This document shows positions 21,861-44,423 of a stretch of DNA of 64,000 bases, piece by piece. The notes beneath the pieces are model-generated. The model saw only the letters and a list, made by a program, of their open reading frames with translations, was not told the origin of the DNA and made no database searches. Source of the stretch: Chthoniobacterales bacterium (GTDB taxonomy: Bacteria; Verrucomicrobiota; Verrucomicrobiia; Chthoniobacterales; DASVRZ01); the NCBI GenBank assembly GCA_036388355.1, contig DASVRZ010000135.1:5240-69239 (forward strand), in the 5' to 3' direction. The translations under genes and the position numbers were made by a program. The stretch's first letter is position 1; each line of letters starts with the position of its first letter.

Positions 21861-24278
21861 TTACCGCTGATACCGCAGAAGGTGTTCGCCGAGGAGTGGC
21901 GGGAAGTCGAGGCTCTTTCTCCGGCTGTGCGTGTCGAGGAAGCGAGCTGCGGCGGTTTGCAACTCGGTCCAGCGGCTCCACGGCAGCGCGGGAGCGGCGG
22001 CGACTTGCCGGAGCAGGCTGTGCCACTCGAGCTGGGCGCGTTCGATGTCGCCCGGGCGCAGGGCCATGGTGAGAAGTTTGCTGCGGTTGGTGCCAGGCGA
22101 GGAGAGCTCGCGCATCACGTCGCCCGCGCCGTCGCCAAAGCCGACTGGAACTCCGAATTCCAGATATCCGGGGAACTCCGCCCGCTCGTAGGTGTGCGAG
22201 CAGACGAATCCGAGGCGTCCGCCGTAAGGAGAGTCGTCCCCGGCGAAACGGTGGCCCGCGCGGATGTTCGCCAGGTCGAAAATGAGATCGTCGATCGGGT
22301 AATCCGGTTTCTCCAGAGCGGCGGCAATGGCCAAACCTTCCCCGTGGGAGAAATAGCTGAAGATTTGCCCGCGCTGAGTGGGTTTCCCATCGGGAGCGAT
22401 GAGACCGAGTCGGCGCCAGGCCATTGCGGGCGAGTTGGCAGGATCCAGGGCCTCGCAATCGGCCTTGTGCAGACACGGCTGGCAAATGGCGGGGAGTTCG
22501 CGGCGAGTCGGCGGATCGATGAGGACCTTGCCGTGAGAGTCGAGATAGCCGGTGATCGGCGAGCCCGCGAAGGAAAACTGCGCGACGATGAGGTTGTTGC
22601 GCACGACGGGAGGAAGCGGCTGACCGGCGGAAAGCTTCGCAACGTAGGGCCAAACGACCTCGTGGAAGGATCTCTCGTCGAAGCGTTTGGTTTCTTTTAG
22701 GCCGCTCTCGCGAAGGAGTTTCCGCACGGGCTGCGTCGGTTGGAAAACGTCGTCCGCAACCGTGGCGACGGTGATTTCCCGGCCATAGGTTTTCTCCGGT
22801 CCCGTCGTGAGCTTGCAGAGGTTGCCGGTGCCGAGTTGATCCAGGGCTTCCGGCTGCGAGAGAACCGGAAGCCAGCGGGGGCCGCGCTTTACAACGGCCC
22901 GCTCCAAGGTGAAGACGAGCGGAGCGGGCTGGATTTCCCATTCATTGCGGCTGTTCAGCATTTCCACATCGAAGCGGCGAACGAGCCGGGCGCGTTCCGC
23001 GTCGGTGCGCAAGCCGCAGGGGATGATTTCCCAATGCAAACCGACTTCAAACCCGGTGCGGACCTCGTGGGTGCTGAAGAGCTTTTTGGTGAGGTCGATA
23101 GCGGCGGAGCAGGGATCATCGCCGTGGTCCACGGCCGCTTGCATGACGCTGACGAACGAGGGCCAATCAATGCTGTTGGGACGTCGCACGCGTTGGGGGC
23201 GCGCGTCGAAGAGCCGCGGAAGATCGGGAGTGGAAAGGACGTAGCCTTTTTCATCCAGGCCTCGACGACCGGCGCGTCCAAACATTTGCAGTAGCTCGTC
23301 GGAGCGGAGTTCGTGGGTGTGGTGGCCGGATTGATAACTGGTGCCGGTGACCATCACGCTGCGGACGGAGAAATTAATGCCCGCCGCAAGCCCTGTGGTG
23401 GAGACGATCACCCGGAGATGTCCGCGTTTCGCCAGCGGCTCGATCAACCCCGCGCGCACGGCGTAGGAGAGCCCGCTGTGATGCCAGGCGACGCGGTTGG
23501 TGAGTAGTTTGGTGAGGAGTTCGCCGGCGAGTTGCCGCTGTTCGTGGGAGAGCGGCAGCGGGTCGGGTGCGGGGAGAGAACTCGCGATCGCGATGGCGAG
23601 ATCTTCGGCAGTTTTGCGGCGCGGCGCGAAGATGAGCAGGGGAGACAGCTGGTTGGAAATGGCGCGGGCGACGAGCTTCGGCCAGTAGCCGGTGATGTTC
23701 GACGGGATCGGCGAGCGGAGGTCGTGCGCCATGATTTCCTCCAGGGGAACAGGCCTCTCGTCGGTGCGGACGAGAGCCGCTTTTCGTCCGAGACGCTCCA
23801 GCCAATCGGCCACGGATTGCGGGTTTTCCACGCTGCCGCTGAGGAGGAGCAGTTGCGTCTGCGACGGAGCCAGTGCGAGGCAAAGCTCATAATTAACGCC
23901 CCGCTGCGCGTCACTGAGGAGCTGATATTCGTCAATGACCAGCAGTCGCGGACCGCGTCGCTGGAGAAAGGCGGCTTTCTGGGTTTCAAGCGTCGCGACG
24001 ATGACGCGGGCGTGGAGGTTTTCCGAAATGTCCCCCGTCGCGATGCCGACATCCCAGCCGCGGGCGCGCCATTCGGCGAGTTTGTCGTTGGCGAGAGCCC
24101 GAGTCGGAACGGTAAAAATCGCCTGCCCGCGGAGCGCCGGGTAGAGCATTTCGAAGACAAACGTCTTCCCCGCACCCGTCGGCGCGTGGACAACCACGTC
24201 GTGCCCATCCCGTAGCAGCCGCACCGCCTCCTGCTGCCAGAGGTCGGGCAGAGCAAGACCTATTTCCAAACCGCGCAT
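21861..24278 (-). CDS. SF2 DExH-type helicase, Ski2/HelY-like (805 aa)
   Basis: Motif I HAPTGAGKT, motif II DEYQ, motif III SGS, motif VI MFGRAGRRG. The C-terminal half has a Ski2/DSHCT-like segment (AWRRLGLIAPDGKPTQRGQIFSYF...AIAAALE). Confidence 0.8.
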   Translation of the reverse strand: MRGLEIGLALPDLWQQEAVRLLRDGHDVVVHAPTGAGKTFVFEMLYPALRGQAIFTVPTRALANDKLAEWRARGWDVGIATGDISENLHARVIVATLETQKAAFLQRRGPRLLVIDEYQLLSDAQRGVNYELCLALAPSQTQLLLLSGSVENPQSVADWLERLGRKAALVRTDERPVPLEEIMAHDLRSPIPSNITGYWPKLVARAISNQLSPLLIFAPRRKTAEDLAIAIASSLPAPDPLPLSHEQRQLAGELLTKLLTNRVAWHHSGLSYAVRAGLIEPLAKRGHLRVIVSTTGLAAGINFSVRSVMVTGTSYQSGHHTHELRSDELLQMFGRAGRRGLDEKGYVLSTPDLPRLFDARPQRVRRPNSIDWPSFVSVMQAAVDHGDDPCSAAIDLTKKLFSTHEVRTGFEVGLHWEIIPCGLRTDAERARLVRRFDVEMLNSRNEWEIQPAPLVFTLERAVVKRGPRWLPVLSQPEALDQLGTGNLCKLTTGPEKTYGREITVATVADDVFQPTQPVRKLLRESGLKETKRFDERSFHEVVWPYVAKLSAGQPLPPVVRNNLIVAQFSFAGSPITGYLDSHGKVLIDPPTRRELPAICQPCLHKADCEALDPANSPAMAWRRLGLIAPDGKPTQRGQIFSYFSHGEGLAIAAALEKPDYPIDDLIFDLANIRAGHRFAGDDSPYGGRLGFVCSHTYERAEFPGYLEFGVPVGFGDGAGDVMRELSSPGTNRSKLLTMALRPGDIERAQLEWHSLLRQVAAAPALPWSRWTELQTAAARFLDTHSRRKSLDFPPLLGEHLLRYQR

Positions 24279-24323
24279 CCTCCAACTGAAAGGTGTTGCG
24301 CGTCCGTTGCAAGGGGAACGTCG

Positions 24324-24746
24324 TTACGAGGTGCCCGGATCGTAAGATCCGCCGTAGCTCGCCTTGTAGAGAGCCAATCCAGTGAGTCGGCTGATTTCCT
24401 GAAAGTGTTTATCGAGCGAGTAAACCCGGCAGTTGTTCTCGATGGCTATCGTTGCGATAACGACATCATTCCAGGGAACCGTGACTCCCGAATCACGGAG
24501 CTTCCAGGACATCTTTTTGGCGGACTCCCAGACGGAGTCCTTCATAGGAACATAAGGAATAATGTCGAAGAAGAAGCTCAGCGGCTTGCGCATCTCCTGC
24601 CGGGCTGCACCCAGTACCTCCAGCTTTACCGGACCGCAAAAGGCAGCTTCATATTCCTCAAGAAGGCTTTCCAAGGCTACTTTGACGTGAAGATCTCCTT
24701 TGGGCCGAGAGGCCTCGATCCACACCGACGAATCCACAATGACCAT
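24324..24746 (-). CDS. vapC: VapC-type PIN-domain ribonuclease toxin
   Basis: MVIVDSSVWIE (first acidic residue), NDVVIATIA, and SLDKHF near the C-terminus give a PIN acidic-residue layout. There is a 1-nt TAATG junction with the upstream antitoxin. Confidence 0.85.
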   Translation of the reverse strand: MVIVDSSVWIEASRPKGDLHVKVALESLLEEYEAAFCGPVKLEVLGAARQEMRKPLSFFFDIIPYVPMKDSVWESAKKMSWKLRDSGVTVPWNDVVIATIAIENNCRVYSLDKHFQEISRLTGLALYKASYGGSYDPGTS

Positions 24747-24952
24747 TACTTGTCGAACTTATCGGGATCGTAGTCGGGCTCGAAAGCATCCGCGAATGCA
24801 CCTTCCCGGATGAGTCTGCCAAACTCTTTAGCTTTTTGCCGTTTGACGAATTCCTCAACAGCCAAGCTGATCGCGGGACTTTTCTTGCTCTCGCCAGTGA
24901 TGGCTTCTAGGTCTTTCAAGACGCTTTCATCGATGTCGACTGTGATTCTCAT
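24746..24952 (-). CDS. vapB: VapB-type antitoxin (ribbon-helix-helix / DUF2191-like), 68 aa
   Basis: MRITVDIDESVLKDLEAITGESKKSPAISLAVEEFVKRQ is the typical small antitoxin that precedes VapC. Confidence 0.8.
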   Translation of the reverse strand: MRITVDIDESVLKDLEAITGESKKSPAISLAVEEFVKRQKAKEFGRLIREGAFADAFEPDYDPDKFDK

Positions 24953-24999: not shown

Positions 25000-26148
25000 T
25001 TATAGTCGCTTTAGATACTGAAGTGCTCTCTCCACCTCATCTTCAGTATTATAAAAGTGGGGGCTGAAACGCAGGTAATCCCGACCGCTACGGTCGAAGC
25101 GGTGGGAGACGATGACGTTTTTTGCCGTCAGCTCGTCGAAGTAGGGCTTCATCGCCTTCTCCGGGTGTCGAAAGGTCACAATTCCGCTCCGCGCGGGACC
25201 ACTCATGGGACTGGCAACCTCAAACCCCAGCTCCGTCACGCCTTCGGCAATCTGCTGCCGAAGCGCCAGAATGCGTTCACTCACCGTCTCCATCCCAATT
25301 TCCAGCAGCATCTCGATCGAAGCCAGCATCCCGTAAATGCCCGGAGTATTCAGCACGCCGGGTTCGTAGCGTTGGGCCGAATCGACAAAAAGAATCTCCG
25401 CCTGCGTAATGAACTGCGGAGACTGAATATTCCACGCGCCGAGCAGCGTTGGCCGAAGCTTCTCGAAGTGCTCGCGCTTCACGTAAACGATCCCCGCCGC
25501 CATCGGCCCGAGCAGCCATTTGTGCGCGTCGGCACTCAGGAAATCCACATGCTCCACGGTCGTGGGAAACGCCCCCAGCGTCTGGATCGCATCCAGCGAA
25601 AAAAGCACCCCGCGATCATGCAACAGCCGCCCAATCGCATCGTGATCGATCCGATAGCCGGTCAAAAAATGACACGAGGCCAGCGCCACCAGCTTCGTCC
25701 GTGGAGTAATCGCCGCCGCGACGAGTTCTGGCGTGATTTCCCCCATCTTCTCCGGCTGGAGATAACGCAATTTCACTCCCAGCCGCTCCAGCGCCAGCCA
25801 CGGGTAAACGTTCGCTGGATAGTCCTCCTGATAACACACCACCTCGTCGCCCGGCTCCCAATCCAGTCCATTGGCAAAAAGACTCAGCCCTAGCGAGGTC
25901 GGGCCGAGCAGCGCGATCTCGTCCGCCTGTGCACCCAGCAGCTTCGCGCAGACCCGACGGGTCCTGGCAATATCGCGCAGCACCGCAGCAAATTCCTGCC
26001 GCTCCGTCGTGCTCTGCCGCGTGTAATCTATCATCGCATCGGCCACGTATTGCGGAAACGTCGTCACCGCCGCGTGTTCCATGAAGATGTGCTCTCGCGC
26101 AATCGGGAAATTCGCCAATCGAGTCGCTTCGTCGGTCCAGAGGTTCAT
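25000..26148 (-). CDS. Class V aminotransferase-fold PLP enzyme (cysteine desulfurase/NifS-like family)
   Basis: FLSADAHKWLLGP (PLP-lysine motif) and an overall class V fold pattern. Specific activity cannot be assigned. Confidence 0.75.
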   Translation of the reverse strand: MNLWTDEATRLANFPIAREHIFMEHAAVTTFPQYVADAMIDYTRQSTTERQEFAAVLRDIARTRRVCAKLLGAQADEIALLGPTSLGLSLFANGLDWEPGDEVVCYQEDYPANVYPWLALERLGVKLRYLQPEKMGEITPELVAAAITPRTKLVALASCHFLTGYRIDHDAIGRLLHDRGVLFSLDAIQTLGAFPTTVEHVDFLSADAHKWLLGPMAAGIVYVKREHFEKLRPTLLGAWNIQSPQFITQAEILFVDSAQRYEPGVLNTPGIYGMLASIEMLLEIGMETVSERILALRQQIAEGVTELGFEVASPMSGPARSGIVTFRHPEKAMKPYFDELTAKNVIVSHRFDRSGRDYLRFSPHFYNTEDEVERALQYLKRL

Positions 26149-26390
26149 GGCTTCGGCGTCCCAGGCGGCGGCGTTTCGCGCGGCGCACGGATCGTGAATT
26201 CCTTCACCACCATCTTCTCGCCCGTCTCCGGGTCCACGTATTTCGCCTGGTCGAACTTAAACGACGGCTCAGGCGGGGGCGGCACCCGCCATTGCGGCGG
26301 AATCACCGGTCCATCCTTGATCATCATAAAGAGCAACCCGTGCACGGCGACCACGCCAATGAAGAGGAGAAACCAGACTTTCCGGCTCAC
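26145..26390 (-). CDS. Small bitopic membrane protein, Pro-rich ectodomain (81 aa)
   Basis: TM helix VWFLLFIGVVAVHGLLFMMI followed by PPQWRVPPPPEP. It has a 4-nt overlap with the downstream aminotransferase gene and a 4-nt gap after the upstream gene. Confidence 0.55.
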   Translation of the reverse strand: MSRKVWFLLFIGVVAVHGLLFMMIKDGPVIPPQWRVPPPPEPSFKFDQAKYVDPETGEKMVVKEFTIRAPRETPPPGTPKP

Positions 26391-26394
26391 AACC

Positions 26395-26757
26395 TCAGGA
26401 TTTCCGGGCGCGCTGACCTTCCTTAATCAGCTCCCAAGGCACCGTCGTTTCCGCGCCGGTTTCGTCCTCGGTCATCGGCAGTTTGGATCGGAAAAGGAAA
26501 TCGCGAATCGTGTTTTTATGCAGCACCCGATGGATCACCACGCCCTCGGGACATTTCCCAAAGTAAATGCGGTAATCCGTCGCGCGATATCTGTAAAAAC
26601 TCTTCCCATCGCGCGTCACTGTCGTGAACCGCGTCTTGTCCAGCTTGTCGAGATCCTCCGGCAAAAGCTGAAATTCGCTCAACAAATCGAGCTGCGTCAG
26701 TTTGGGAATTGCGGCCATTTCAGCGGCGCTGATTTCATTAAAAATAATCTGGAACAT
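26395..26757 (-). CDS. RelE/ParE-fold protein (toxin-like) with C-terminal extension; no adjacent antitoxin
   Basis: MFQIIFNEISAAEMAAIPKLTQLDLLSEF...KSFYRYRATDYRIYFGKCPEGVVIHRVLHKNT matches the RelE/ParE layout (..Y.L.VGDYRIIY......V.I..I.HR...). Confidence 0.5.
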   Translation of the reverse strand: MFQIIFNEISAAEMAAIPKLTQLDLLSEFQLLPEDLDKLDKTRFTTVTRDGKSFYRYRATDYRIYFGKCPEGVVIHRVLHKNTIRDFLFRSKLPMTEDETGAETTVPWELIKEGQRARKS

Positions 26758-38034: not shown

Positions 38035-39222
38035 TTATTCAGTGAGCCGGCTCGAATGCACTTCGCGGCCGCCTCGGAGCGCGCGCAACATGCCTTCCTG
38101 GAGGAACAGCTTCTGGTGCTCCTCCATGAGGTAACGATCCGTCATGCCGGAAAGATAGTCGCAAATCGTGCGGTGAAGACCTTCCTTGCGCACGCGTTGC
38201 GCGGCCGATTTACCGAGCAGCGACGGGCAGGAGACGTAGGCATTGAAAACATTCCGCAACATCGTGCAGGCGCGTTTATTCACGTCGGCGACCTTCGGGT
38301 GATAGTAGAGATTCTGATAAAGAAACTTCCGCAACTGCGCCGTCGCCTTCGTCATCGCAGGGCTGTAGGAGACGAGCGGCTTCTTCTGTTTGCTAACATC
38401 TGCGATGCTCTTAAGTCCGGCTTTTTCAATGTTCTTTGCGCTGGTGACAATCACGTCTTCCACCAGGCGATCTATCAAGCACCGAATCACAAAGGTGCGA
38501 AACTCCGGCCCCTTCAGTTTCTTGTAATCCTCCTGCACAGCGGCGCTCGTCTCGCTCCAGAGCGTGAGCTTTTCCAGTTGATCCACAGCTAACAATTCAA
38601 AATCCATCCCGTCGTCGAGATCGTGGCTGTAGTAGGTAATCTCGTCCGCAATGTTAGTGATCTGCGCCTCGAGGCACGGTGAGCTGCTAGGCTTGGAGTC
38701 GGGCTGAAAGGCTTCATGTTTGCGCAAGCCCTGGAGGACTTCCGAGGAGAGATTCAGACCAGGAAACTTCGGATATTTGTTTTCCAGCAACTCGACCACG
38801 CGCAGGCTTTGCGAGTTGTGTTCAAATCCGCCGTGTTCGTGCATGAGCTCATCGAGCATTTCCTCTCCGGAATGTCCAAACGGAGCGTGCCCCAGGTCAT
38901 GCGCCATGGCGATCGCTTCCGCGAGATCTTCATTCAGGCACAGCGCGCGGGAAATCGTCCGGCTAATGGAAGCGACTTCAATGGTGTGCGTGAGGCGGGT
39001 GCGCAGATGGTCGCCCGTGCCATTCAGAAAGACCTGCGTCTTGTATTCCAGACGGCGAAAAGAGCGCGAATGAATGATGCGTGCCCGGTCGCGCTGGAAT
39101 TCGGTGCGAAAAGCGTGTGACGTTTCGGGATATTTCCGGCCTTCGGACAGCGCGGACTTTTGCGCGTAAGGAGCGAGGGACGTGAGCTCGGAGGCTTCGT
39201 AGTTTTCGCGGGTTCGGAGCAT
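38035..39222 (-). CDS. dgt: dGTP triphosphohydrolase-like HD-domain protein
   Basis: FQRDRARIIHSRSFRRLEYKTQVF, RLTHTIEV and HDLGHAPFGHSGE motifs. Confidence 0.88.
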   Translation of the reverse strand: MLRTRENYEASELTSLAPYAQKSALSEGRKYPETSHAFRTEFQRDRARIIHSRSFRRLEYKTQVFLNGTGDHLRTRLTHTIEVASISRTISRALCLNEDLAEAIAMAHDLGHAPFGHSGEEMLDELMHEHGGFEHNSQSLRVVELLENKYPKFPGLNLSSEVLQGLRKHEAFQPDSKPSSSPCLEAQITNIADEITYYSHDLDDGMDFELLAVDQLEKLTLWSETSAAVQEDYKKLKGPEFRTFVIRCLIDRLVEDVIVTSAKNIEKAGLKSIADVSKQKKPLVSYSPAMTKATAQLRKFLYQNLYYHPKVADVNKRACTMLRNVFNAYVSCPSLLGKSAAQRVRKEGLHRTICDYLSGMTDRYLMEEHQKLFLQEGMLRALRGGREVHSSRLTE

Positions 39223-39237: not shown

Positions 39238-39534
39238 TTACTCGTCTTCGTCGTCAGCGAAAATCTGTTTTCTCAAGCGGCGCTGCTCCTCCCGACCGGC
39301 CTTGCGCACCGCCAGCAAATCATACGCAGCGAGGAGGAAAATGAGAATGGTCAGCCACATGCAGGCGAACCAATAGATGAAAAACCACGTCACATGCGCG
39401 ATGAGCCACGGACCGAGGAACGTCCAGCCGACGAAGAGCATGACGAGCGCGGCAACCACCAGCACGGACAGCGCATGGCGGCGCTGCGTCTGGTCGCGAA
39501 TCAGGCCAATGCACGTCTGGAGGAGGAAACGCAT
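39238..39534 (-). CDS. Small polytopic membrane protein (98 aa)
   Basis: Only the C-terminal 98 codons of track ORF 39238..40092 are non-overlapping and hydrophobic: MRFLLQTCIG...WFFIYWFACMWLTILIFLLAAY, followed by an acidic tail. ATG at 39534. Confidence 0.5.
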   Translation of the reverse strand: MRFLLQTCIGLIRDQTQRRHALSVLVVAALVMLFVGWTFLGPWLIAHVTWFFIYWFACMWLTILIFLLAAYDLLAVRKAGREEQRRLRKQIFADDEDE

Positions 39535-39608
39535 ACTGCCGGGATCATTCGCCGAAAGCCTCCAGCGAAGCAAAGCGTTTTTCGGCTCCAACCGCCCTGG
39601 ACAGTGGC

Positions 39609-42137
39609 TCAGCGCCACTCGTGCCGCGGGTATTTGCGCTGCAATTGCTGCTTCAGAACAGGGTAACTTTCCTTCCAAAAAGTGGTGAGGCTTTGCGTTA
39701 CCTGCACCGGGCGATGATTGGGCGCGAGCACTTGAATGAGAACGGGAACGCGGCCCATGCAGACGGTGAGGTCGCGCTCGACGCCAAACAAATCCTGGAT
39801 GCGCGCCGCGAGCGTGGGCGGTCCGGTTTCGGCATAAACGAGCTTGATCGCCCGCGGCTTGGCGAGACCAGGAAGGTCGATTTTCTCCGGCGCGTGGGTG
39901 TCGAGCAGCTCGAGTTGGGAGCGGCTCAGCCAGCTTTTGACGGTCGGCCAGACGGACTTTTCCTTGATGTCTTTGTAGCCCATCGCGCCGAGGCAAAGCT
40001 GCTCGACCAAGGTGGTGCGATCTTCGAGGGTGAGCGGCGGCAGGCCGAAGTCCGGCGCCCATTCCGCCAAGCGATTGAGGCGAATGATCCATTGCTCGAC
40101 GGCGTGATCCCAGTTCTCCAGGACGAGACGTCCGGCGACGACTTCCTCCGCTAGAACGCGGGCGGCGTCTCCGGGAGGCGGCACTCCGGCCTTCGGCTTC
40201 TCCAGCGTGAGATCGCGAAAACGGCGGCTCGTTTCGGCTATGACTCGCCGCTGGATGGGGTCGAAACGGGCGATGGTGGACTCCGAGAAATCGGCCGGGA
40301 AAAGCTCGCGCAGCCAGTCTTCCTGAATCGCGGTGGCGAGTGTGAGAAGGGTATTCAGTTCCTTGTCGCGGCCTTCGATCTCGCGGATTTCGCCAATGAC
40401 TAACAACGGATGCTTCTGCACCACGCTCTCCCGCGCAAGGACGCCGCGCCGCGCGTGCACGAGTTCACATTGCAAGGTGCCGCTGTCCATCCGGCGCGCC
40501 ACTTGATCGGAAAAACCGGCGAGCAGACACTTTGCGAGCGCTTCTCCGTTCATCGGGCTCTCGCTCACGTCGAGTTTCTCGTCGGCGGCGATGCGCAGAA
40601 ATTGATCGAAAAGCTGCTGGATCTGCCGGGCGGTGGCGTAGTGGATTCCGAGTTGTTTGCTGCGATCGGGGCCGGCTTTCACCGCGTAACGCCAGGCGCG
40701 GATCGCGAGGAAAAAATCGGATTCCGCCTCCGAGCCGAGGATGTCGTCGCGCAGATCGTCCATCTTTCGGCCCTGGCTGCGGAGGAGAATGCCGCGGCCT
40801 TGCGTCATCGCTGCTAACAATGCACAGCCGCGGACGCAGCCGAGCTCCTGCGCCATCAAGAACATGCGCGCATATCGCGGATGCACGGGAAAGGCTAACA
40901 TCCGACGTCCGAGCGGCGTGATCGTTTGCTCCGCACGATCCACTGCGCCGAGATCCACCAGCAAATCTTCGGCGCGTTGCAGTCCGCGGGCGTCGGGTTT
41001 TTCCAGCCAACGGAAATCTTGGATGTTTCTAACATCGCCCGCTTTGAGCGTGAGCACGACTTCGCTGAGATCGAGCCGTTTGACCTCGGGCAAATCCTGC
41101 GGGGCCCGAAGCGTGTGCTCATGGGAGGTCCAGAGGCGCAGGCAACGACCGGGAGCCGTGCGTCCGGCGCGTCCGGCGCGTTGATCCGCCGAGGAGCGGG
41201 AGATTTTTTCCACGAGGAGGGTGTTGATGCCTCGCTGCGGATCGAATTTAGCGACGCGTGCGAGGCCTGCATCGACGACGATCGTGATGCCATCGATGGT
41301 GAGCGACGTTTCCGCAACGTTGGTCGAAACCACGACTTTGCGCGTGTCGTGTTTGCTGACGGCGGCGTCCTGATCGGCGGCGGGAAGTTCGCCGTGCAAG
41401 GGAAGGACTAACACTCCACGGCTGGTGCGCCGGATCGCTTCGATGGTGCGCTGGATTTCATATGCGCCCGGCATGAAGACGAGCGCGTCGCCGGTGGTTT
41501 TGGCGAGCAGTTTGTCCAACTCATCAGCAGCAAGATCCCAGATCGGGTAATCCGGGCCAACGGGTTTGTCGAGATAGTGGATGTCCACCGGGTGCATGCG
41601 CCCTTCGGAGGTGAGGACGTCGCAGGGGGAGAGATAGTCCTCGAGTTTGCCGGTCTCCAGCGTGGCCGACATGACGACAATGACCAAGTCCGGTCGTGTT
41701 GTTTCCTGCAAGTCCAGCGCGCGGGCAAGGGTGATGTCGCCGTAGAGATGGCGTTCGTGAAATTCATCGAAAACAACGACCTGGATGCCGCGCAGATGCG
41801 GATCGTGGATCATTTGTCGCAGGAGAATTCCTTCCGTGACGAAGCGAATCCGCGTTTGTTCCGACGTGCGGTTTTCGAGTCGGATCTGGTAGCCGACGAG
41901 GCTGCCGGTTTTGACGCTCATCTCGGAAGCGACGCGGTCGGCGAGCATGCGCGCAGCGAGGCGGCGCGGTTGCAGGAGGACGATCTGGCCGGTTTCGGTG
42001 AGTCCCGCCCGGTGGAGAATCTGCGGAATCTGGGTGGATTTGCCGGAGCCGGTGGGCGCGTGCACGAGCAGTCGCGCCTTGGGACGCCGTGCCGCCGCGA
42101 CAATGGCGTCGGCTATTTCGTAAATGGGGAGAGTCAT
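39609..42137 (-). CDS. hrpB: ATP-dependent RNA helicase HrpB (DEAH/RHA family)
   Basis: GSGKSTQIPQ, DEFHER, SAT, TNVAETSLTIDGI and QRAGRAGR, plus HA2/OB and HrpB C-terminal regions (842 aa). Confidence 0.92.
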   Translation of the reverse strand: MTLPIYEIADAIVAAARRPKARLLVHAPTGSGKSTQIPQILHRAGLTETGQIVLLQPRRLAARMLADRVASEMSVKTGSLVGYQIRLENRTSEQTRIRFVTEGILLRQMIHDPHLRGIQVVVFDEFHERHLYGDITLARALDLQETTRPDLVIVVMSATLETGKLEDYLSPCDVLTSEGRMHPVDIHYLDKPVGPDYPIWDLAADELDKLLAKTTGDALVFMPGAYEIQRTIEAIRRTSRGVLVLPLHGELPAADQDAAVSKHDTRKVVVSTNVAETSLTIDGITIVVDAGLARVAKFDPQRGINTLLVEKISRSSADQRAGRAGRTAPGRCLRLWTSHEHTLRAPQDLPEVKRLDLSEVVLTLKAGDVRNIQDFRWLEKPDARGLQRAEDLLVDLGAVDRAEQTITPLGRRMLAFPVHPRYARMFLMAQELGCVRGCALLAAMTQGRGILLRSQGRKMDDLRDDILGSEAESDFFLAIRAWRYAVKAGPDRSKQLGIHYATARQIQQLFDQFLRIAADEKLDVSESPMNGEALAKCLLAGFSDQVARRMDSGTLQCELVHARRGVLARESVVQKHPLLVIGEIREIEGRDKELNTLLTLATAIQEDWLRELFPADFSESTIARFDPIQRRVIAETSRRFRDLTLEKPKAGVPPPGDAARVLAEEVVAGRLVLENWDHAVEQWIIRLNRLAEWAPDFGLPPLTLEDRTTLVEQLCLGAMGYKDIKEKSVWPTVKSWLSRSQLELLDTHAPEKIDLPGLAKPRAIKLVYAETGPPTLAARIQDLFGVERDLTVCMGRVPVLIQVLAPNHRPVQVTQSLTTFWKESYPVLKQQLQRKYPRHEWR

Positions 42138-42568
42138 GGAAACACCGCCAAACCTTCCGCCACCGCCGCCTGCCGCTGCCGCTCATCAAACGTGTAAAAC
42201 GCGCTCACTCCTAACAAAGCGGCTGCCGCAACGTGCAACAGATCCAGGCTGCGAGTGGCCACGGTTGGAGTGTGCCGGTCGCTGAGTTCGAGAGCTTTCT
42301 CGTAAAGAGCGGCAGTGGGAGGAGTGGCTTCGATGAAGATGCCCGCGCCGAGCATGTTCTCCAGCAGCTGCCAAAGCTGATAAACTTCGCCTGGACTGAT
42401 CTTCTCGCGCACGACTGCCAGGTTGAAGCTATTTCGCAATTCCAGCAGGCTCAATGGCGTCAACGTGATAGCAGATCCCTCTTGCTGCAAAGCTTCTCTC
42501 GCTTGTTGCGATCTGTCCTCGATGAGAAATAGCGACGCTAGGAAGCTGGTGTCCGCGTAAGCGCTCAC
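42134..42568 (-). CDS. vapC: VapC-type PIN-domain toxin
   Basis: VSAYADTSFLASLF... and SLDLLHVAAAALLGVSAFYTFDERQ (PIN acidic residues). The GTG start forms a GTGA overlap with the antitoxin stop, and the stop forms an ATGA overlap with the hrpB start. The track merges this gene with an upstream out-of-frame stretch. Confidence 0.8.
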   Translation of the reverse strand: MSAYADTSFLASLFLIEDRSQQAREALQQEGSAITLTPLSLLELRNSFNLAVVREKISPGEVYQLWQLLENMLGAGIFIEATPPTAALYEKALELSDRHTPTVATRSLDLLHVAAAALLGVSAFYTFDERQRQAAVAEGLAVFP

Positions 42569-42843
42569 CGGTCTCCCCGGTCCAGGATAAACTCCATGTC
42601 TTCCTTGCTCAGCTTGCGGGATTCCAGATCCTCCCCGAAAACCTCCCGCTGGATGGCTTGGAAATCCGGCCATTTCACCGGGCCCGCTGGTTCCGCTGAT
42701 TTCGGCACGAGCTGCGCGACGATTTTCCCCCGCTTGGTGAGATTCACCGATTCGCCTTCCTCGATCCAGCGAAAGACTTTTGGGAAATGGTTGCGCAGAT
42801 CTGCAATGGTCGCCGTTTTCATTGTGAGACATTGATCTCTCAT
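42565..42843 (-). CDS. Phd/YefM-type antitoxin
   Basis: MKTATIADLRNHFPKVFRWIEEGESVNLTKRGKIVAQLVP is the canonical Phd/YefM N-terminus. The likely true start is the ATG at 42822. Confidence 0.8.
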   Translation of the reverse strand: MRDQCLTMKTATIADLRNHFPKVFRWIEEGESVNLTKRGKIVAQLVPKSAEPAGPVKWPDFQAIQREVFGEDLESRKLSKEDMEFILDRGDR

Positions 42844-42917
42844 GAGGGCGGCGGCAAATCATTTCTGCTTTTTGCCTGTTCCGCAGCGGTGCTCTCCATG
42901 ATCTTTAGCCGCATCTC

Positions 42918-44423
42918 ATGAAGCTCTTCCTCCGCACATTTTGGCCGTGGTTGGCGGCGATCTTGAGCGGGGTCCTGCTGACGCTTTGTTTCGCGCCGTA
43001 TGAGCAGGATTGGCTAGTCTGGGGCGCGTTGATTCCGTTGCTGGCGGTCGCGTGGTTTGGAAAGTTGCCAGCGTGGAAACGCTTCGTCGCGGGCTGGCTG
43101 GGAGGCGTTTTCTTCTTCTCGATGACCTTCTACTGGCTGGGAAAAGTCACCGTGCTCGGCTGGCTCGGTCTGACCTTTTACCTCGCGATCTATCCCGGCA
43201 TCTGGACGTGGCTTGCCGGATTTCCCGCTTGCCGGATTGCGCTCTCGAAGCCGCTGCCGGGACAATCTCCCTGGTGGCGTTCGGTGCGGAGCATTGTGGT
43301 GGCGGTGACGCTCGCTTCCGCCTGGGCGCTGCTGGAATGGGTGCGCGGCTGGGCCTTCGGTGGCTTTGGCTGGAATGGCCTGGGCGTCGCGCTGTTTGCC
43401 AACATACCGTTTGTGCAGCTCAGCTCCATCGGAGGCGTGCCGTTTATCTCGTGGCTGATCGTTTTCACCAATGCCGTCGCCGTCACGACAGTCGCGCGGC
43501 TGGTGGCGGAAGCGGGGCGGCTGACGTTTGCTTCGCGGTCGGATTTTACCTTCGGCGTCGCGTTGGTTCTGGGGTGTTTTACGTGGGGGCTGAGCCTCTC
43601 TTTCGATCAGAGCCATGACCGGGAAATCAAGGTTTCGCTGGTGCAGGCGGCGAGCGATCAGGAGCCGCTGCGCGACTATCTTCGCCTAACATCGCTAGCC
43701 GTTCTTCAATCGCCAGATCTGGTGGTGTGGCCGGAATCCGCTTCCGGCGCGCCGTTGCTCGATTCGCTGGACGAGTTGAAAAAATGGGCTGTCGAATATG
43801 ATCTGGAGAACTCCAAAACGTGGTTGATCACGGGTAGCCAGGAGAATTCCCCGGATGGTTCCTTTAACAGTGCTTATGCAGTCGCGCCCGGCAGACAGGG
43901 GATGCAAGCCTACCGCAAACGCCACTTGCTGCCCTTCTACGAGAGCGAGTTTGCTCCGGGAAAATCGGCCTCGCCGCTGTGGCTCATCGGCAGCGACACG
44001 CGATTCGGGCCGCTCATTTGCGTCGAGGACACCGTCCCCGCTCTATCGCGCGACAACGTCTCGGCAGGAGCTAACATTCTCCTAAACCTCACGGACGACG
44101 GCCTGTTCCAGGATCGCGTGGTGGAGCGCCAGCATCTTCTCAACGCGCTCTTTCGCGCCCCAGAAACCGGTCTGCCGCTAATCCGCTGTGCCCACACAGG
44201 CGTCACGGCGTTCATCGACCGGCAGGGGCGCATTTCGCAACAACTAGAGCCCGCGATTCCCGGCATTCTCACAGGGAAACTCGCTTTCCGCGCGCAGCCT
44301 CCACGCACCTTCTTTCACCAGTGGGGCTTTGTTTTCCCGATGTTTTGGACGCTGATTGTCGCGTGGCGTTTCCTGGCTGTGCGTTGGTGGGAACGCCGGA
44401 AGTCGGCAGCGACAAATAGCTAG
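42918..44423 (+). CDS. lnt: Apolipoprotein N-acyltransferase
   Basis: Polytopic N-terminus and a CN-hydrolase domain (LVVWPESA, YRKRHLLPF, PLICVEDT). Confidence 0.88.
   Translation: MKLFLRTFWPWLAAILSGVLLTLCFAPYEQDWLVWGALIPLLAVAWFGKLPAWKRFVAGWLGGVFFFSMTFYWLGKVTVLGWLGLTFYLAIYPGIWTWLAGFPACRIALSKPLPGQSPWWRSVRSIVVAVTLASAWALLEWVRGWAFGGFGWNGLGVALFANIPFVQLSSIGGVPFISWLIVFTNAVAVTTVARLVAEAGRLTFASRSDFTFGVALVLGCFTWGLSLSFDQSHDREIKVSLVQAASDQEPLRDYLRLTSLAVLQSPDLVVWPESASGAPLLDSLDELKKWAVEYDLENSKTWLITGSQENSPDGSFNSAYAVAPGRQGMQAYRKRHLLPFYESEFAPGKSASPLWLIGSDTRFGPLICVEDTVPALSRDNVSAGANILLNLTDDGLFQDRVVERQHLLNALFRAPETGLPLIRCAHTGVTAFIDRQGRISQQLEPAIPGILTGKLAFRAQPPRTFFHQWGFVFPMFWTLIVAWRFLAVRWWERRKSAATNS

Follow-up and report, generated by a model that had tools for sequence, protein, structure and literature searches.

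The TA pair that precedes the hrpB helicase gene in one Chthoniobacterales lineage is most probably an accessory module of the VapBC type, lodged in a variable slot between hrpB and the divergently oriented lnt gene. The arrangement was found in the MAG of a Chthoniobacterales soil bacterium, in a stretch of 64,000 nucleotides referred to here as the window, where the antitoxin gene (phd), vapC and hrpB all lie on the minus strand (Table 1). Both junctions between them are overlaps of 4 nt, as the original prediction for this locus had described: the antitoxin TGA (42567-42565) overlaps the vapC GTG (42568-42566) as GTGA (42568-42565), and the vapC TGA (42136-42134) overlaps the hrpB ATG (42137-42135) as ATGA (42137-42134). 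Such stop/start overlaps are typical inside TA operons (PMC5499597). They are also the commonest type of junction in the window, accounting for 9 of 38 co-oriented adjacent pairs, with ATGA in 8 of these 9, and the overlaps of phd-vapC-hrpB do not exceed chance expectation for the window.

Table 1. Features of the two TA-helicase loci, in window coordinates
Feature	Coordinates	Strand	Remarks
Antitoxin gene (phd; Phd/YefM-type N-terminal domain; VapB of Phd/YefM class)	42565..42822	-	85-aa ORF
vapC toxin gene (PIN domain, GTG start)	42134..42568	-	144-aa ORF; PF01850
hrpB, DEAH/RHA-type (DEFH) ATP-dependent helicase	39609..42137	-	842 aa; TIGR01970
lnt (apolipoprotein N-acyltransferase)	42918..44423	+	TIGR00546, 191.8 bits
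lnt-antitoxin intergenic region	42823..42917	.	95 nt; presumed promoter location for phd-vapC-hrpB
Unit 2 VapB antitoxin	24746..24952	-	68 aa; PF09957, 32.7 bits
Unit 2 VapC PIN toxin	24324..24746	-	140 aa; PF01850, 35.4 bits
Unit 2 DEAD/DEAH-box SF2 helicase	21861..24278	-	805 aa; Pfam DEAD, DEXQc_Suv3 (weak Suv3-like match), Helicase_C
Unit 2 helicase leader	24279-24323		about 45 nt; conserved with or without the TA pair

A VapBC pair with a Phd/YefM-type antitoxin

The identities first proposed for the three genes, i.e., a Phd/YefM-type antitoxin, a PIN/VapC toxin and HrpB, agree with the profile matches. VapC matches the Pfam PIN family (PF01850) with 47.5 bits, against a cut-off of 23.6, and its GTG codon corresponds to the first residue in an alignment of the 144-aa family. 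Five acidic residues, D6, E43, D97, D109 and D128, are invariant in 29 members of this family, the window VapC included; by analogy with PIN domains in general, they are presumed to be the acidic residues of the catalytic site. An AlphaFold2 model of the protein has a pLDDT of 93.7, and its best Foldseek matches are PAE0151, M. tuberculosis VapBC (5x3t), VapC20, VapC15 and FitB, with TM values of 0.66-0.72. Outside the strain, the nearest VapC reaches only 57% identity, and the closest sequence relatives are uncharacterised metagenomic proteins; a tblastn search of PLSDB gave no match to a plasmid copy.

The assignment of the antitoxin comes from its family more than from the single sequence, which scores 26.2-26.5 bits against PF02604 (PhdYeFM_antitox), just under the cut-off of 29.8. 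PF02604 is matched by 17 of 23 members of the antitoxin family, and the family profile matches both M. tuberculosis VapB46 (6jqy, E 1.6e-6) and Phd (E 6e-5), which places the protein in the Phd/YefM-type class of VapBC antitoxins. The N-terminal half is conserved in the alignment, and the C-terminal part diverges from the protein's own family. While the gene is present as originally predicted, its start had been set at 42843; it most likely lies at 42822 (MKTATI..., 85 aa), since all 22 aligned family antitoxins begin with MKTA and the JGI gene call is also 85 aa. The 92-aa ORF from 42843 is thus probably an over-extension.

Spurious ORFs are abundant in GC-rich DNA, and the two small ORFs might accordingly be read as a nonfunctional, decaying remnant or a mis-annotation, with overlaps that are mere accidents of ORF calling; the sub-threshold Pfam score of the antitoxin and its divergent C-terminal part would fit such a reading. 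It is scarcely credible, however, for a VapC of full family length that retains all the invariant acidic residues and gives a confident PIN model, paired with an antitoxin whose N-terminal half is conserved and whose family profile reaches VapB46 and Phd, both genes having been called by independent gene callers.

The same pairing is found throughout the VapC family, for which 80 loci were collected: a small antitoxin ORF lies upstream of the toxin gene in 60 of the 62 loci with enough upstream sequence. The genes on the 3' side are heterogeneous, including HTH regulators, a response regulator, an ABC ATPase and a pectate-lyase-like protein, and hrpB is downstream in none of the 63 loci with at least 600 nt of downstream sequence. 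At one locus of the family (L168), the next gene encodes a PLD-SNF2 helicase, with a 4-nt overlap.

The closest described counterparts are VapBC modules with a Phd/YefM-type antitoxin, such as M. tuberculosis VapBC46 and VapBC5. The window pair resembles them in the length of its PIN toxin (about 140 aa) and the conserved acidic residues of that protein, in its small upstream antitoxin with an N-terminal domain matching VapB46 and Phd, and in the 4-nt antitoxin-toxin overlap seen in TA operons (PMC5499597). It differs in that its relatives are uncharacterised and at most 57% identical, in the divergence of the antitoxin C-terminus from its own family, and in that the toxin gene runs directly into a large housekeeping-type gene. 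Judged by its sequence, the pair appears to be an ordinary chromosomal type II TA module of the VapBC kind, with predicted toxin activity. From what is known of the family, the antitoxin would bind and neutralise VapC and probably repress the operon through its N-terminal DNA-binding domain, while free VapC would cleave RNA.

Foreign origin was also considered on the basis of composition. Over the TA pair, GC falls to 0.55-0.58, but the GC3 z-scores are only -0.75 and +0.06, and composition is no mark of foreignness because the GC3 of the TA genes lies within one standard deviation of the window mean. No mobility gene was identified.

Upstream neighbours of hrpB

HrpB itself is a regular member of its family. 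It matches TIGR01970 over its full length with 599.6 bits (equivalog cut-off 546.15), contains the DEAD, Helicase_C, HA2 and HrpB_C (PF08482, 108 bits) domains, and its helicase motifs are invariant in the HrpB alignment. This domain set, HrpB_C included, is that of HrpB from Escherichia coli and other bacteria (TIGR01970), and only the upstream neighbour is unusual here. To our knowledge, HrpB is a helicase without established function.

With the conserved divergent lnt gene as the anchor for synteny comparison, the upstream neighbour of hrpB proves to vary among relatives whose HrpB is 82-92% identical to that of the window. In four loci with 92% identical HrpB, namely L004-L006 (GCA_039930045.1 and two Logan contigs) and L007 (GCA_038230215.1), the TA pair is absent and divergent lnt lies directly upstream of hrpB, at distances of 69 and 362 nt. 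The start of hrpB is kept within one codon between the window (MTLPIYEI) and its 91-92% identical relatives (MLPIYEI or MKLPIYEI), and the lnt-phd spacer of the window has only patchy similarity to the lnt-hrpB spacer of the TA-less relatives. In L009-L011 (HrpB 91%), the slot holds a gene for a 672-aa Na+/H+ exchanger, with lnt upstream of it in L011. The TGA of this gene overlaps the hrpB ATG as ATGA, and an overlap of this kind with hrpB is therefore not specific to VapC. Yet other upstream neighbours are found in L176, L178 and L008.

One further relative does share the toxin gene. In L177 (HrpB 89%), the 3' end of the same vapC is followed by a 39-nt spacer and then by hrpB, the two VapC sequences being identical at 28 of 37 residues by eye and 79% identical over a 24-residue BLASTP segment. 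Of the L177 sequence, 49 nt have no counterpart at this junction in the window, and since L177 keeps its spacer, the overlap in the window is best seen as a later compaction.

Beyond this small clade, no association between vapC and hrpB was found among 75 hrpB loci, drawn from other Verrucomicrobiota, the PVC group and other bacteria, or among the 63 VapC-family loci mentioned above. The VapC-family HMM matched none of 1211 ORFs upstream of hrpB in the 75 distant loci and in the close-relative loci L001-L011, and no Pfam PIN domain was detected in the 35 nearest co-oriented ORFs upstream of the distant hrpB genes.

These comparisons run against the original prediction, which had held the arrangement to be hard to square with an inserted TA cassette and had proposed a survey of hrpB 5' neighbourhoods: 91-92% identical orthologues do without the TA pair, an exchanger gene can form the same overlap, L177 has a spacer, and none of the 75 distant loci has an upstream PIN gene. 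The prediction had also named, as genomic evidence that would count against it, hrpB orthologues that lack the TA pair, with an unchanged start and a promoter of their own; TA-less orthologues do exist, with the start kept to within one codon and an upstream region of their own next to divergent lnt.

Two PIN modules beside two helicases

A second VapBC-helicase unit is present in the window, and the hrpB locus had been said to mirror it. The unit does exist, but its toxin and helicase genes do not overlap and are separated by a gap of 45 nt, its VapC has no significant sequence similarity to the first one, and the two units share no homologous toxin or antitoxin and have helicases from different families. 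Its TA pair is also variable among relatives, being absent in L172 and L173 and present in L175, where the VapC at the same site is 76% identical. One of the relatives discussed above, GCA_039930045.1, is devoid of TA modules at both helicases.

Nevertheless, both PIN genes of the window are immediately upstream of its only two Helicase_C genes, among about 69 ORFs. Random placement of two modules before both helicases would have a probability of roughly 5e-4, a post hoc value that is uncorrected for other coincidences. In addition, each adjacency recurs in a second, diverged lineage, L177 for the first unit and L175 for the second; because of this persistence, neither TA module is a very recent insertion.

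A precedent for a joint function is provided by PhoH2, which joins a VapC-like PIN RNase to RNA helicase activity under the control of the PhoAT antitoxin (PMC4826407; PMC5499597). PhoH2/PhoAT was the model for the original idea that phd, vapC and hrpB form a functional unit. In such a unit, the VapC RNase and the RNA-dependent ATPase/helicase HrpB would act together on RNA under antitoxin control. This would amount to a split PhoH2 analogue, possibly with a role in defence or stress, whose stoichiometry would be set by translational coupling. The two overlaps that bind the three genes together, the position of both PIN genes before the only two helicase genes, the adjacencies kept in L177 and L175, and the helicase gene that follows the toxin gene in L168 would all be in keeping with it. 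However, the close hrpB orthologues in which the TA pair is missing or a transporter gene has taken its position, the missing overlap in L177, the counts of 0/75 and 0/63 and the unrelated components of the two units make it very unlikely. The TA proteins moreover match no model in PADLOC-DB 2.0, with no defence-system assignment, and the matches of HrpB to Cas3 helicase cores in the same database are weak (18-23 bits).

A broader version, according to which PIN toxins were recruited beside SF2 RNA helicases as working partners in this Chthoniobacterales clade, giving a split and evolutionarily young PhoH2 analogue, would account for the position of both PIN modules before the only two helicases of the window as well as for the retention of each adjacency in a second, diverged lineage. 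The helicase would then unwind RNA or present it to the RNase, or else counteract the RNase. This too is a long shot, and a functional PIN-helicase unit is not supported by the sequence comparisons. PhoH2 combines PIN and a PhoH-type helicase in one polypeptide, whereas the window has separate genes and a DEAH/RHA-type HrpB, and the pairing is neither a fusion nor an invariable linkage, as it is absent in close relatives and in other family members. Beyond PhoH2, the literature yielded nothing specific on a link between HrpB and TA systems or on a VapC-helicase operon.

Tripartite TA systems offer another comparison. In TAC, for example, HigBA is accompanied by a SecB-like chaperone, and the third gene moves together with the TA pair. 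The window resembles these systems in its three co-oriented genes and compact junctions, but differs in that the gene 3' of the VapC family changes from locus to locus and, in the 63 loci, is never hrpB.

Transcription of hrpB and history of the locus

Co-transcription of vapC and hrpB, as first proposed, is very likely in this strain, judging from gene anatomy, as there is nowhere for a terminator between the overlapping genes. A scan of positions 39300-43100, with motifs that do not cover Verrucomicrobiota promoters, gave no sigma-70-like site in the TA region, vapC and phd included, and a single promoter-like site far downstream, near 39330. Terminator-like hairpins numbered 9 in the same interval, versus 4.0 +/- 2.4 in shuffled sequences, but they lie inside coding sequence and are uninformative. 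No operator-like inverted repeat of at least 7 nt was found upstream of phd by a simple scan of 42780-42960.

These features could suggest a regulatory capture, in which hrpB would have lost its own promoter and be expressed only from the TA promoter, without any protein interaction; the amount of HrpB would depend on the antitoxin:toxin ratio through conditional cooperativity and go up when stress leads to degradation of the antitoxin. Neither a terminator nor an intergenic promoter fits into the overlap, the scan found no sigma-70-like site inside vapC or phd, and hrpB of TA-less relatives is as close as 69 nt to lnt, so that the original promoter region would now be upstream of phd or displaced. 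As an explanation in its own right, capture is nonetheless unlikely: the motifs scanned leave room for an internal promoter in vapC, phd is not preceded by an operator-like repeat, and there is no sign of selection, L177 having retained its spacer. Such a capture would also be a consequence of insertion, and as such is compatible with an accessory module.

The accessory-module explanation implies the following history. The module would have been gained upstream of hrpB before the window and L177 lineages split, with loss or replacement in the sister lineages. In the HrpB tree, which is nearly star-like at 91-92% identity, neither an ancestral pair with several losses nor a spread by recombination is favoured over the other. 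A deletion of about 49 nt between vapC and hrpB, flanked by the short direct repeats TTTCCAT and TTTTCAT, may then have occurred in the window lineage and brought the vapC stop into overlap with the hrpB start. As a result, hrpB would now be transcribed by read-through from the phd-vapC promoter, and it may be translationally coupled to vapC. Both would be by-products of operon compaction and no evidence for a joint function of VapC and HrpB.

The locus is thus a cautionary case, in which a 4-nt overlap between a toxin gene and a large gene mimics designed coupling; such an overlap can result when a cassette has entered a variable slot and a short stretch of DNA is then deleted. If the PIN-helicase partnership were true after all, HrpB would gain a testable partner, and the PhoH2 principle would extend to separate genes. 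What the analysis newly brings to light is a VapBC family that is so far uncharacterised, has a Phd/YefM-type antitoxin and occurs commonly in metagenomes from soil and peat, and an hrpB gene that, in this Chthoniobacterales lineage, tolerates a wide range of upstream partners.

The phd-vapC-hrpB genes and their junctions

The region consists of three consecutive minus-strand ORFs that ORF calling and the sequence itself place without any intergenic space. The middle one encodes a PIN-domain protein (PF01850, 47.5 bits) and the last encodes HrpB, with 599.6 bits against TIGR01970 (cut-off 546) and the domains DEAD, Helicase_C, HA2, and HrpB_C; the antitoxin scores 26.2 bits against PhdYeFM_antitox, slightly below the cut-off of 29.8. 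The GTGA and ATGA junctions described in the original prediction are both present in the window sequence. Its start of the genes at 42843 most likely has to be moved, since MKTA, with which all family antitoxins begin, falls at 42822, giving an antitoxin of 85 aa rather than 92.

Positions of the features discussed (in the window, unless a comparison locus is named)
Feature	Position	Strand	Remarks
Antitoxin gene (phd)	42822-42565; TGA 42567-42565	minus	small, first of three; junction to vapC GTGA
vapC	GTG 42568-42566; TGA 42136-42134	minus	144 aa; junction to hrpB ATGA
hrpB	ATG 42137-42135; end 39609	minus	842 aa
lnt	42918-44423	plus	divergent, upstream of phd-vapC-hrpB
98-aa ORF			downstream of hrpB
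dGTPase gene	38035-39222		downstream, two genes 3' of hrpB
Second unit, vapB	24952-24746	minus	PF09957
Second unit, vapC	24746-24324	minus	PIN domain
Second unit, helicase gene	24278-21861	minus	805 aa, DEAD/DEAH
120-aa ORF	26395-26757		weak ParE-toxin match
81-aa ORF	26145-26390		same strand, just downstream of the 120-aa ORF
Exchanger/hrpB overlap	L009 2898-2901; L010 3904-3907; L011 4001-4004		ATGA
Tandem array	L007 4703-4947		lnt-hrpB spacer
vapC and PLD-SNF2 gene	L168 2810-6027		4-nt overlap
vapC and truncated PLD-SNF2 gene	L169 94-677		first 45 codons of the PLD-SNF2 gene only

The toxin-antitoxin (TA) pair forms a genuine module, intact and belonging to a family that recurs. At E <= 1e-5, VapC has 475 relatives; almost all of them are 144 aa in length, and the nearest beyond the window strain is 57% identical. 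In an alignment of 29 relatives, D6, E43, D97, D109, and D128 are invariant and the GTG start aligns to family residue 1; the top Foldseek matches of an AlphaFold2 model built on this alignment (pLDDT 93.7) are PIN/VapC structures (TM 0.66-0.72), with PAE0151, M. tuberculosis VapBC (5x3t), VapC20, VapC15, and FitB among the matches. A set of 80 metagenomic VapC-family loci includes 62 with enough upstream sequence, and a small ORF overlaps the toxin start in 60 of these. The antitoxin family profile matches M. tuberculosis VapB46 (E 1.6e-6) and Phd, and PF02604 is matched by 17 of 23 family members; together with the PIN/VapC evidence, this identifies phd-vapC as a pair of the VapBC type whose antitoxin is of the Phd/YefM class.

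A 4-nt overlap carries little information in itself. Exact 4-nt overlaps join 9 of the 38 co-oriented adjacent gene pairs in the window (eight ATGA, one GTGA), 1-nt overlaps join two further pairs, and the 4-nt overlap is the textbook arrangement within TA operons (PMC5499597). The nearby dGTPase gene matches the PADLOC dGTPase model (310 bits); its score is above the cut-off of the housekeeping equivalog NF002326 (439 bits, cut-off 390) and below that of the anti-phage dGTPase model (231 bits, cut-off 400).

A variable slot upstream of hrpB

Genomic contexts were taken for every HrpB at 74-92% pairwise identity. All three contigs with an identical HrpB, which belong to one strain (a Chthoniobacterales MAG), have the phd-vapC-hrpB layout. 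At 92% identity, hrpB lies next to divergent lnt, without the TA pair, at 69 nt in L004-L006 (GCA_039930045.1 and two Logan contigs) and at 362 nt in L007 (GCA_038230215.1), and in L176 it follows the end of an unrelated gene and a 96-nt gap. Three loci at 91-92% (L009, L010, and, in GCA_043758065.1, L011) carry a gene for a 672-aa Na+/H+ exchanger (Na_H_Exchanger and TrkA_C domains) between lnt and hrpB. The upstream neighbour is the 3' end of the window's vapC followed by a 39-nt spacer in L177 (89%), a divergent glycosyltransferase gene in L178 (83%), and mutS in L008 (74%). The hrpB start is constant to within one codon (MTLPIYEI in the window, MLPIYEI or MKLPIYEI in relatives), and the exchanger TGA overlaps the hrpB ATG as ATGA: the window's type of junction, formed with a completely different gene. 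The arrangement had been held hard to reconcile with an inserted TA cassette. That argument gives way before hrpB orthologues that lack the TA pair, keep their start, and in some loci have other genes in the slot; the genomic part of what the original prediction named as evidence against itself is found in L004-L007.

The second hrpB codon (window 42132-42137 and homologous positions) is ACT (Thr) in the window, AAA or AAG (Lys) in L009, L011, and L177, and missing in L004 and L007; among the window, L004, L009, L011, and L177, an A follows the ATG wherever the upstream gene is co-oriented. The L007 spacer is filled by a tandem array of period 21 nt (about 10 copies) with a higher-order period of 63 nt (3.9 copies, 85% matches), and no such array occurs in the lnt-hrpB or lnt-phd spacers of L004 and the window.

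The L177 contig opens within a gene that ends, over its last 39 codons, in LDLLHAATALLLEVDAFYTFDERQRLAASGEGLTVFPLR*. These residues form the C-terminus of the same VapC as in the window, with 28 of 37 residues identical by eye and a BLASTP match of 79% over 24 residues (E 4e-12). The 39-nt spacer before the hrpB ATG is T-rich, and when the two DNA sequences are aligned, the window is 49 nt shorter than L177, the missing block being flanked by the near-repeats TTTCCAT and TTTTCAT. A small slippage-type deletion has thus probably created the overlap of vapC with hrpB in the window lineage; an insertion in L177 could also account for the difference. By either route, the vapC-hrpB overlap is confined to a single lineage. 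In the HrpB tree, which is nearly star-like at 91-92% identity, L177 branches just outside, and VapC diverges faster than HrpB; together, this fits a single old acquisition of the TA pair with later losses or replacements, and spread by recombination is a possible alternative.

PIN and helicase genes beyond the close relatives

A survey of hrpB 5' neighbourhoods drew on 80 loci from other genomes (Verrucomicrobiota, Kiritimatiellia, Lentisphaerae, Planctomycetota, and others; HrpB 37-62% identical), 75 of them with usable upstream sequence, and returned no PIN gene beyond the window's clade. The VapC-family HMM matched none of 1211 ORFs upstream of hrpB, L001-L011 included, except in the window strain, and Pfam detected a PIN domain in 0 of the 35 nearest co-oriented ORFs, which encode phosphoesterases, FKBP isomerase, NAD kinase, PgpA, RidA-like proteins, Hsp20, and others. 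Overlaps of 4 nt or 1 nt with hrpB also occur in L037, L043, L045, L046, L082, and L083. Conversely, 63 VapC-family loci extend at least 600 nt beyond the toxin gene, and tblastn found neither HrpB nor a relative of the second helicase in them. A tight co-oriented gene follows vapC in seven of these, with mixed functions (HTH regulators, an ABC ATPase, a pectate-lyase-like protein, an unknown 713-aa protein, and one PLD-SNF2 helicase). The gene calls behind these counts were crude, the longest ORFs being taken greedily, so that single cases could escape, but a conserved association would not.

Often, hrpB is the distal gene of a compact operon with unrelated partners. Five Opitutae loci (L043, L045, L046, L047, and L051) have a conserved gene for a 151-153-aa Metallophos_2 phosphoesterase directly 5' of hrpB; in three of these loci the two genes share 4 nt or 1 nt. 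In L168, a VapC-family member 45% identical to the window's precedes a 923-aa PLD-nuclease and SNF2 helicase protein, which could be a defence-type gene beside a TA pair.

Pfam finds exactly two PIN and two Helicase_C genes among 69 window ORFs, each PIN gene directly 5' of a Helicase_C gene. Random placement of two modules before about 65 genes would give this with a probability of 2/65 x 1/64, about 5e-4, a post hoc figure; the double adjacency is suggestive at most, having been spotted in hindsight among many possible coincidences that would be equally striking. The second unit had been said to mirror the first, which is true of gene order. Toxin and helicase genes are separated there by 45 nt, without overlap, the two VapCs have no detectable sequence similarity, the antitoxins are of different classes, and the helicases are of different families. 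Orthologues of the second helicase in GCA_039930045.1 (88%) and GCA_038228695.1 (81%) directly follow an aminotransferase gene without a TA pair, and L175 (85%) has the TA pair at the same site. A leader of about 40 nt before the helicase start is kept in all four, so that the cassette fits neatly into the space between this leader and the stop codon of the aminotransferase gene. Both TA modules are absent from GCA_039930045.1. A functional PIN-helicase link, for which PhoH2 offers a precedent (PIN and PhoH RNA helicase domains in one protein, controlled by the PhoAT antitoxin; PMC4826407), is very improbable, and is retained mainly because both window PIN genes precede helicase genes.

The 805-aa helicase, encoded beside the mraZ/dcw cluster, matches helicase-core regions of the Hachiman HamB and PDC-M23B models (up to 93 bits); its synteny and conservation in relatives point to a housekeeping role. 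The 120-aa ORF with its ParE-toxin match (E 0.005, 17.8 bits, below cut-off) and the adjacent 81-aa ORF may represent a third TA-like pair in degenerate form.

Expression and standing of the module

Window scans identified no promoter or operator for phd-vapC-hrpB. Going by their families, the antitoxin would neutralise VapC and repress the operon, and free VapC would cleave RNA. The gene anatomy suggests that hrpB is co-transcribed with phd-vapC in the window strain, where its translation may also be coupled to vapC. No hrpB context read by eye, in the window or its relatives, has a strong Shine-Dalgarno sequence before the gene, so translational coupling is not obviously required. The genes and overlaps of the original prediction stand, its interpretation is borne out only in part, and its functional unit is not supported, the slot being variable and the pairing without recurrence. 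More probably, phd-vapC is an accessory module of the VapBC type that occupies a hypervariable site 5' of a helicase gene of housekeeping type, and its overlap with hrpB is a secondary compaction.
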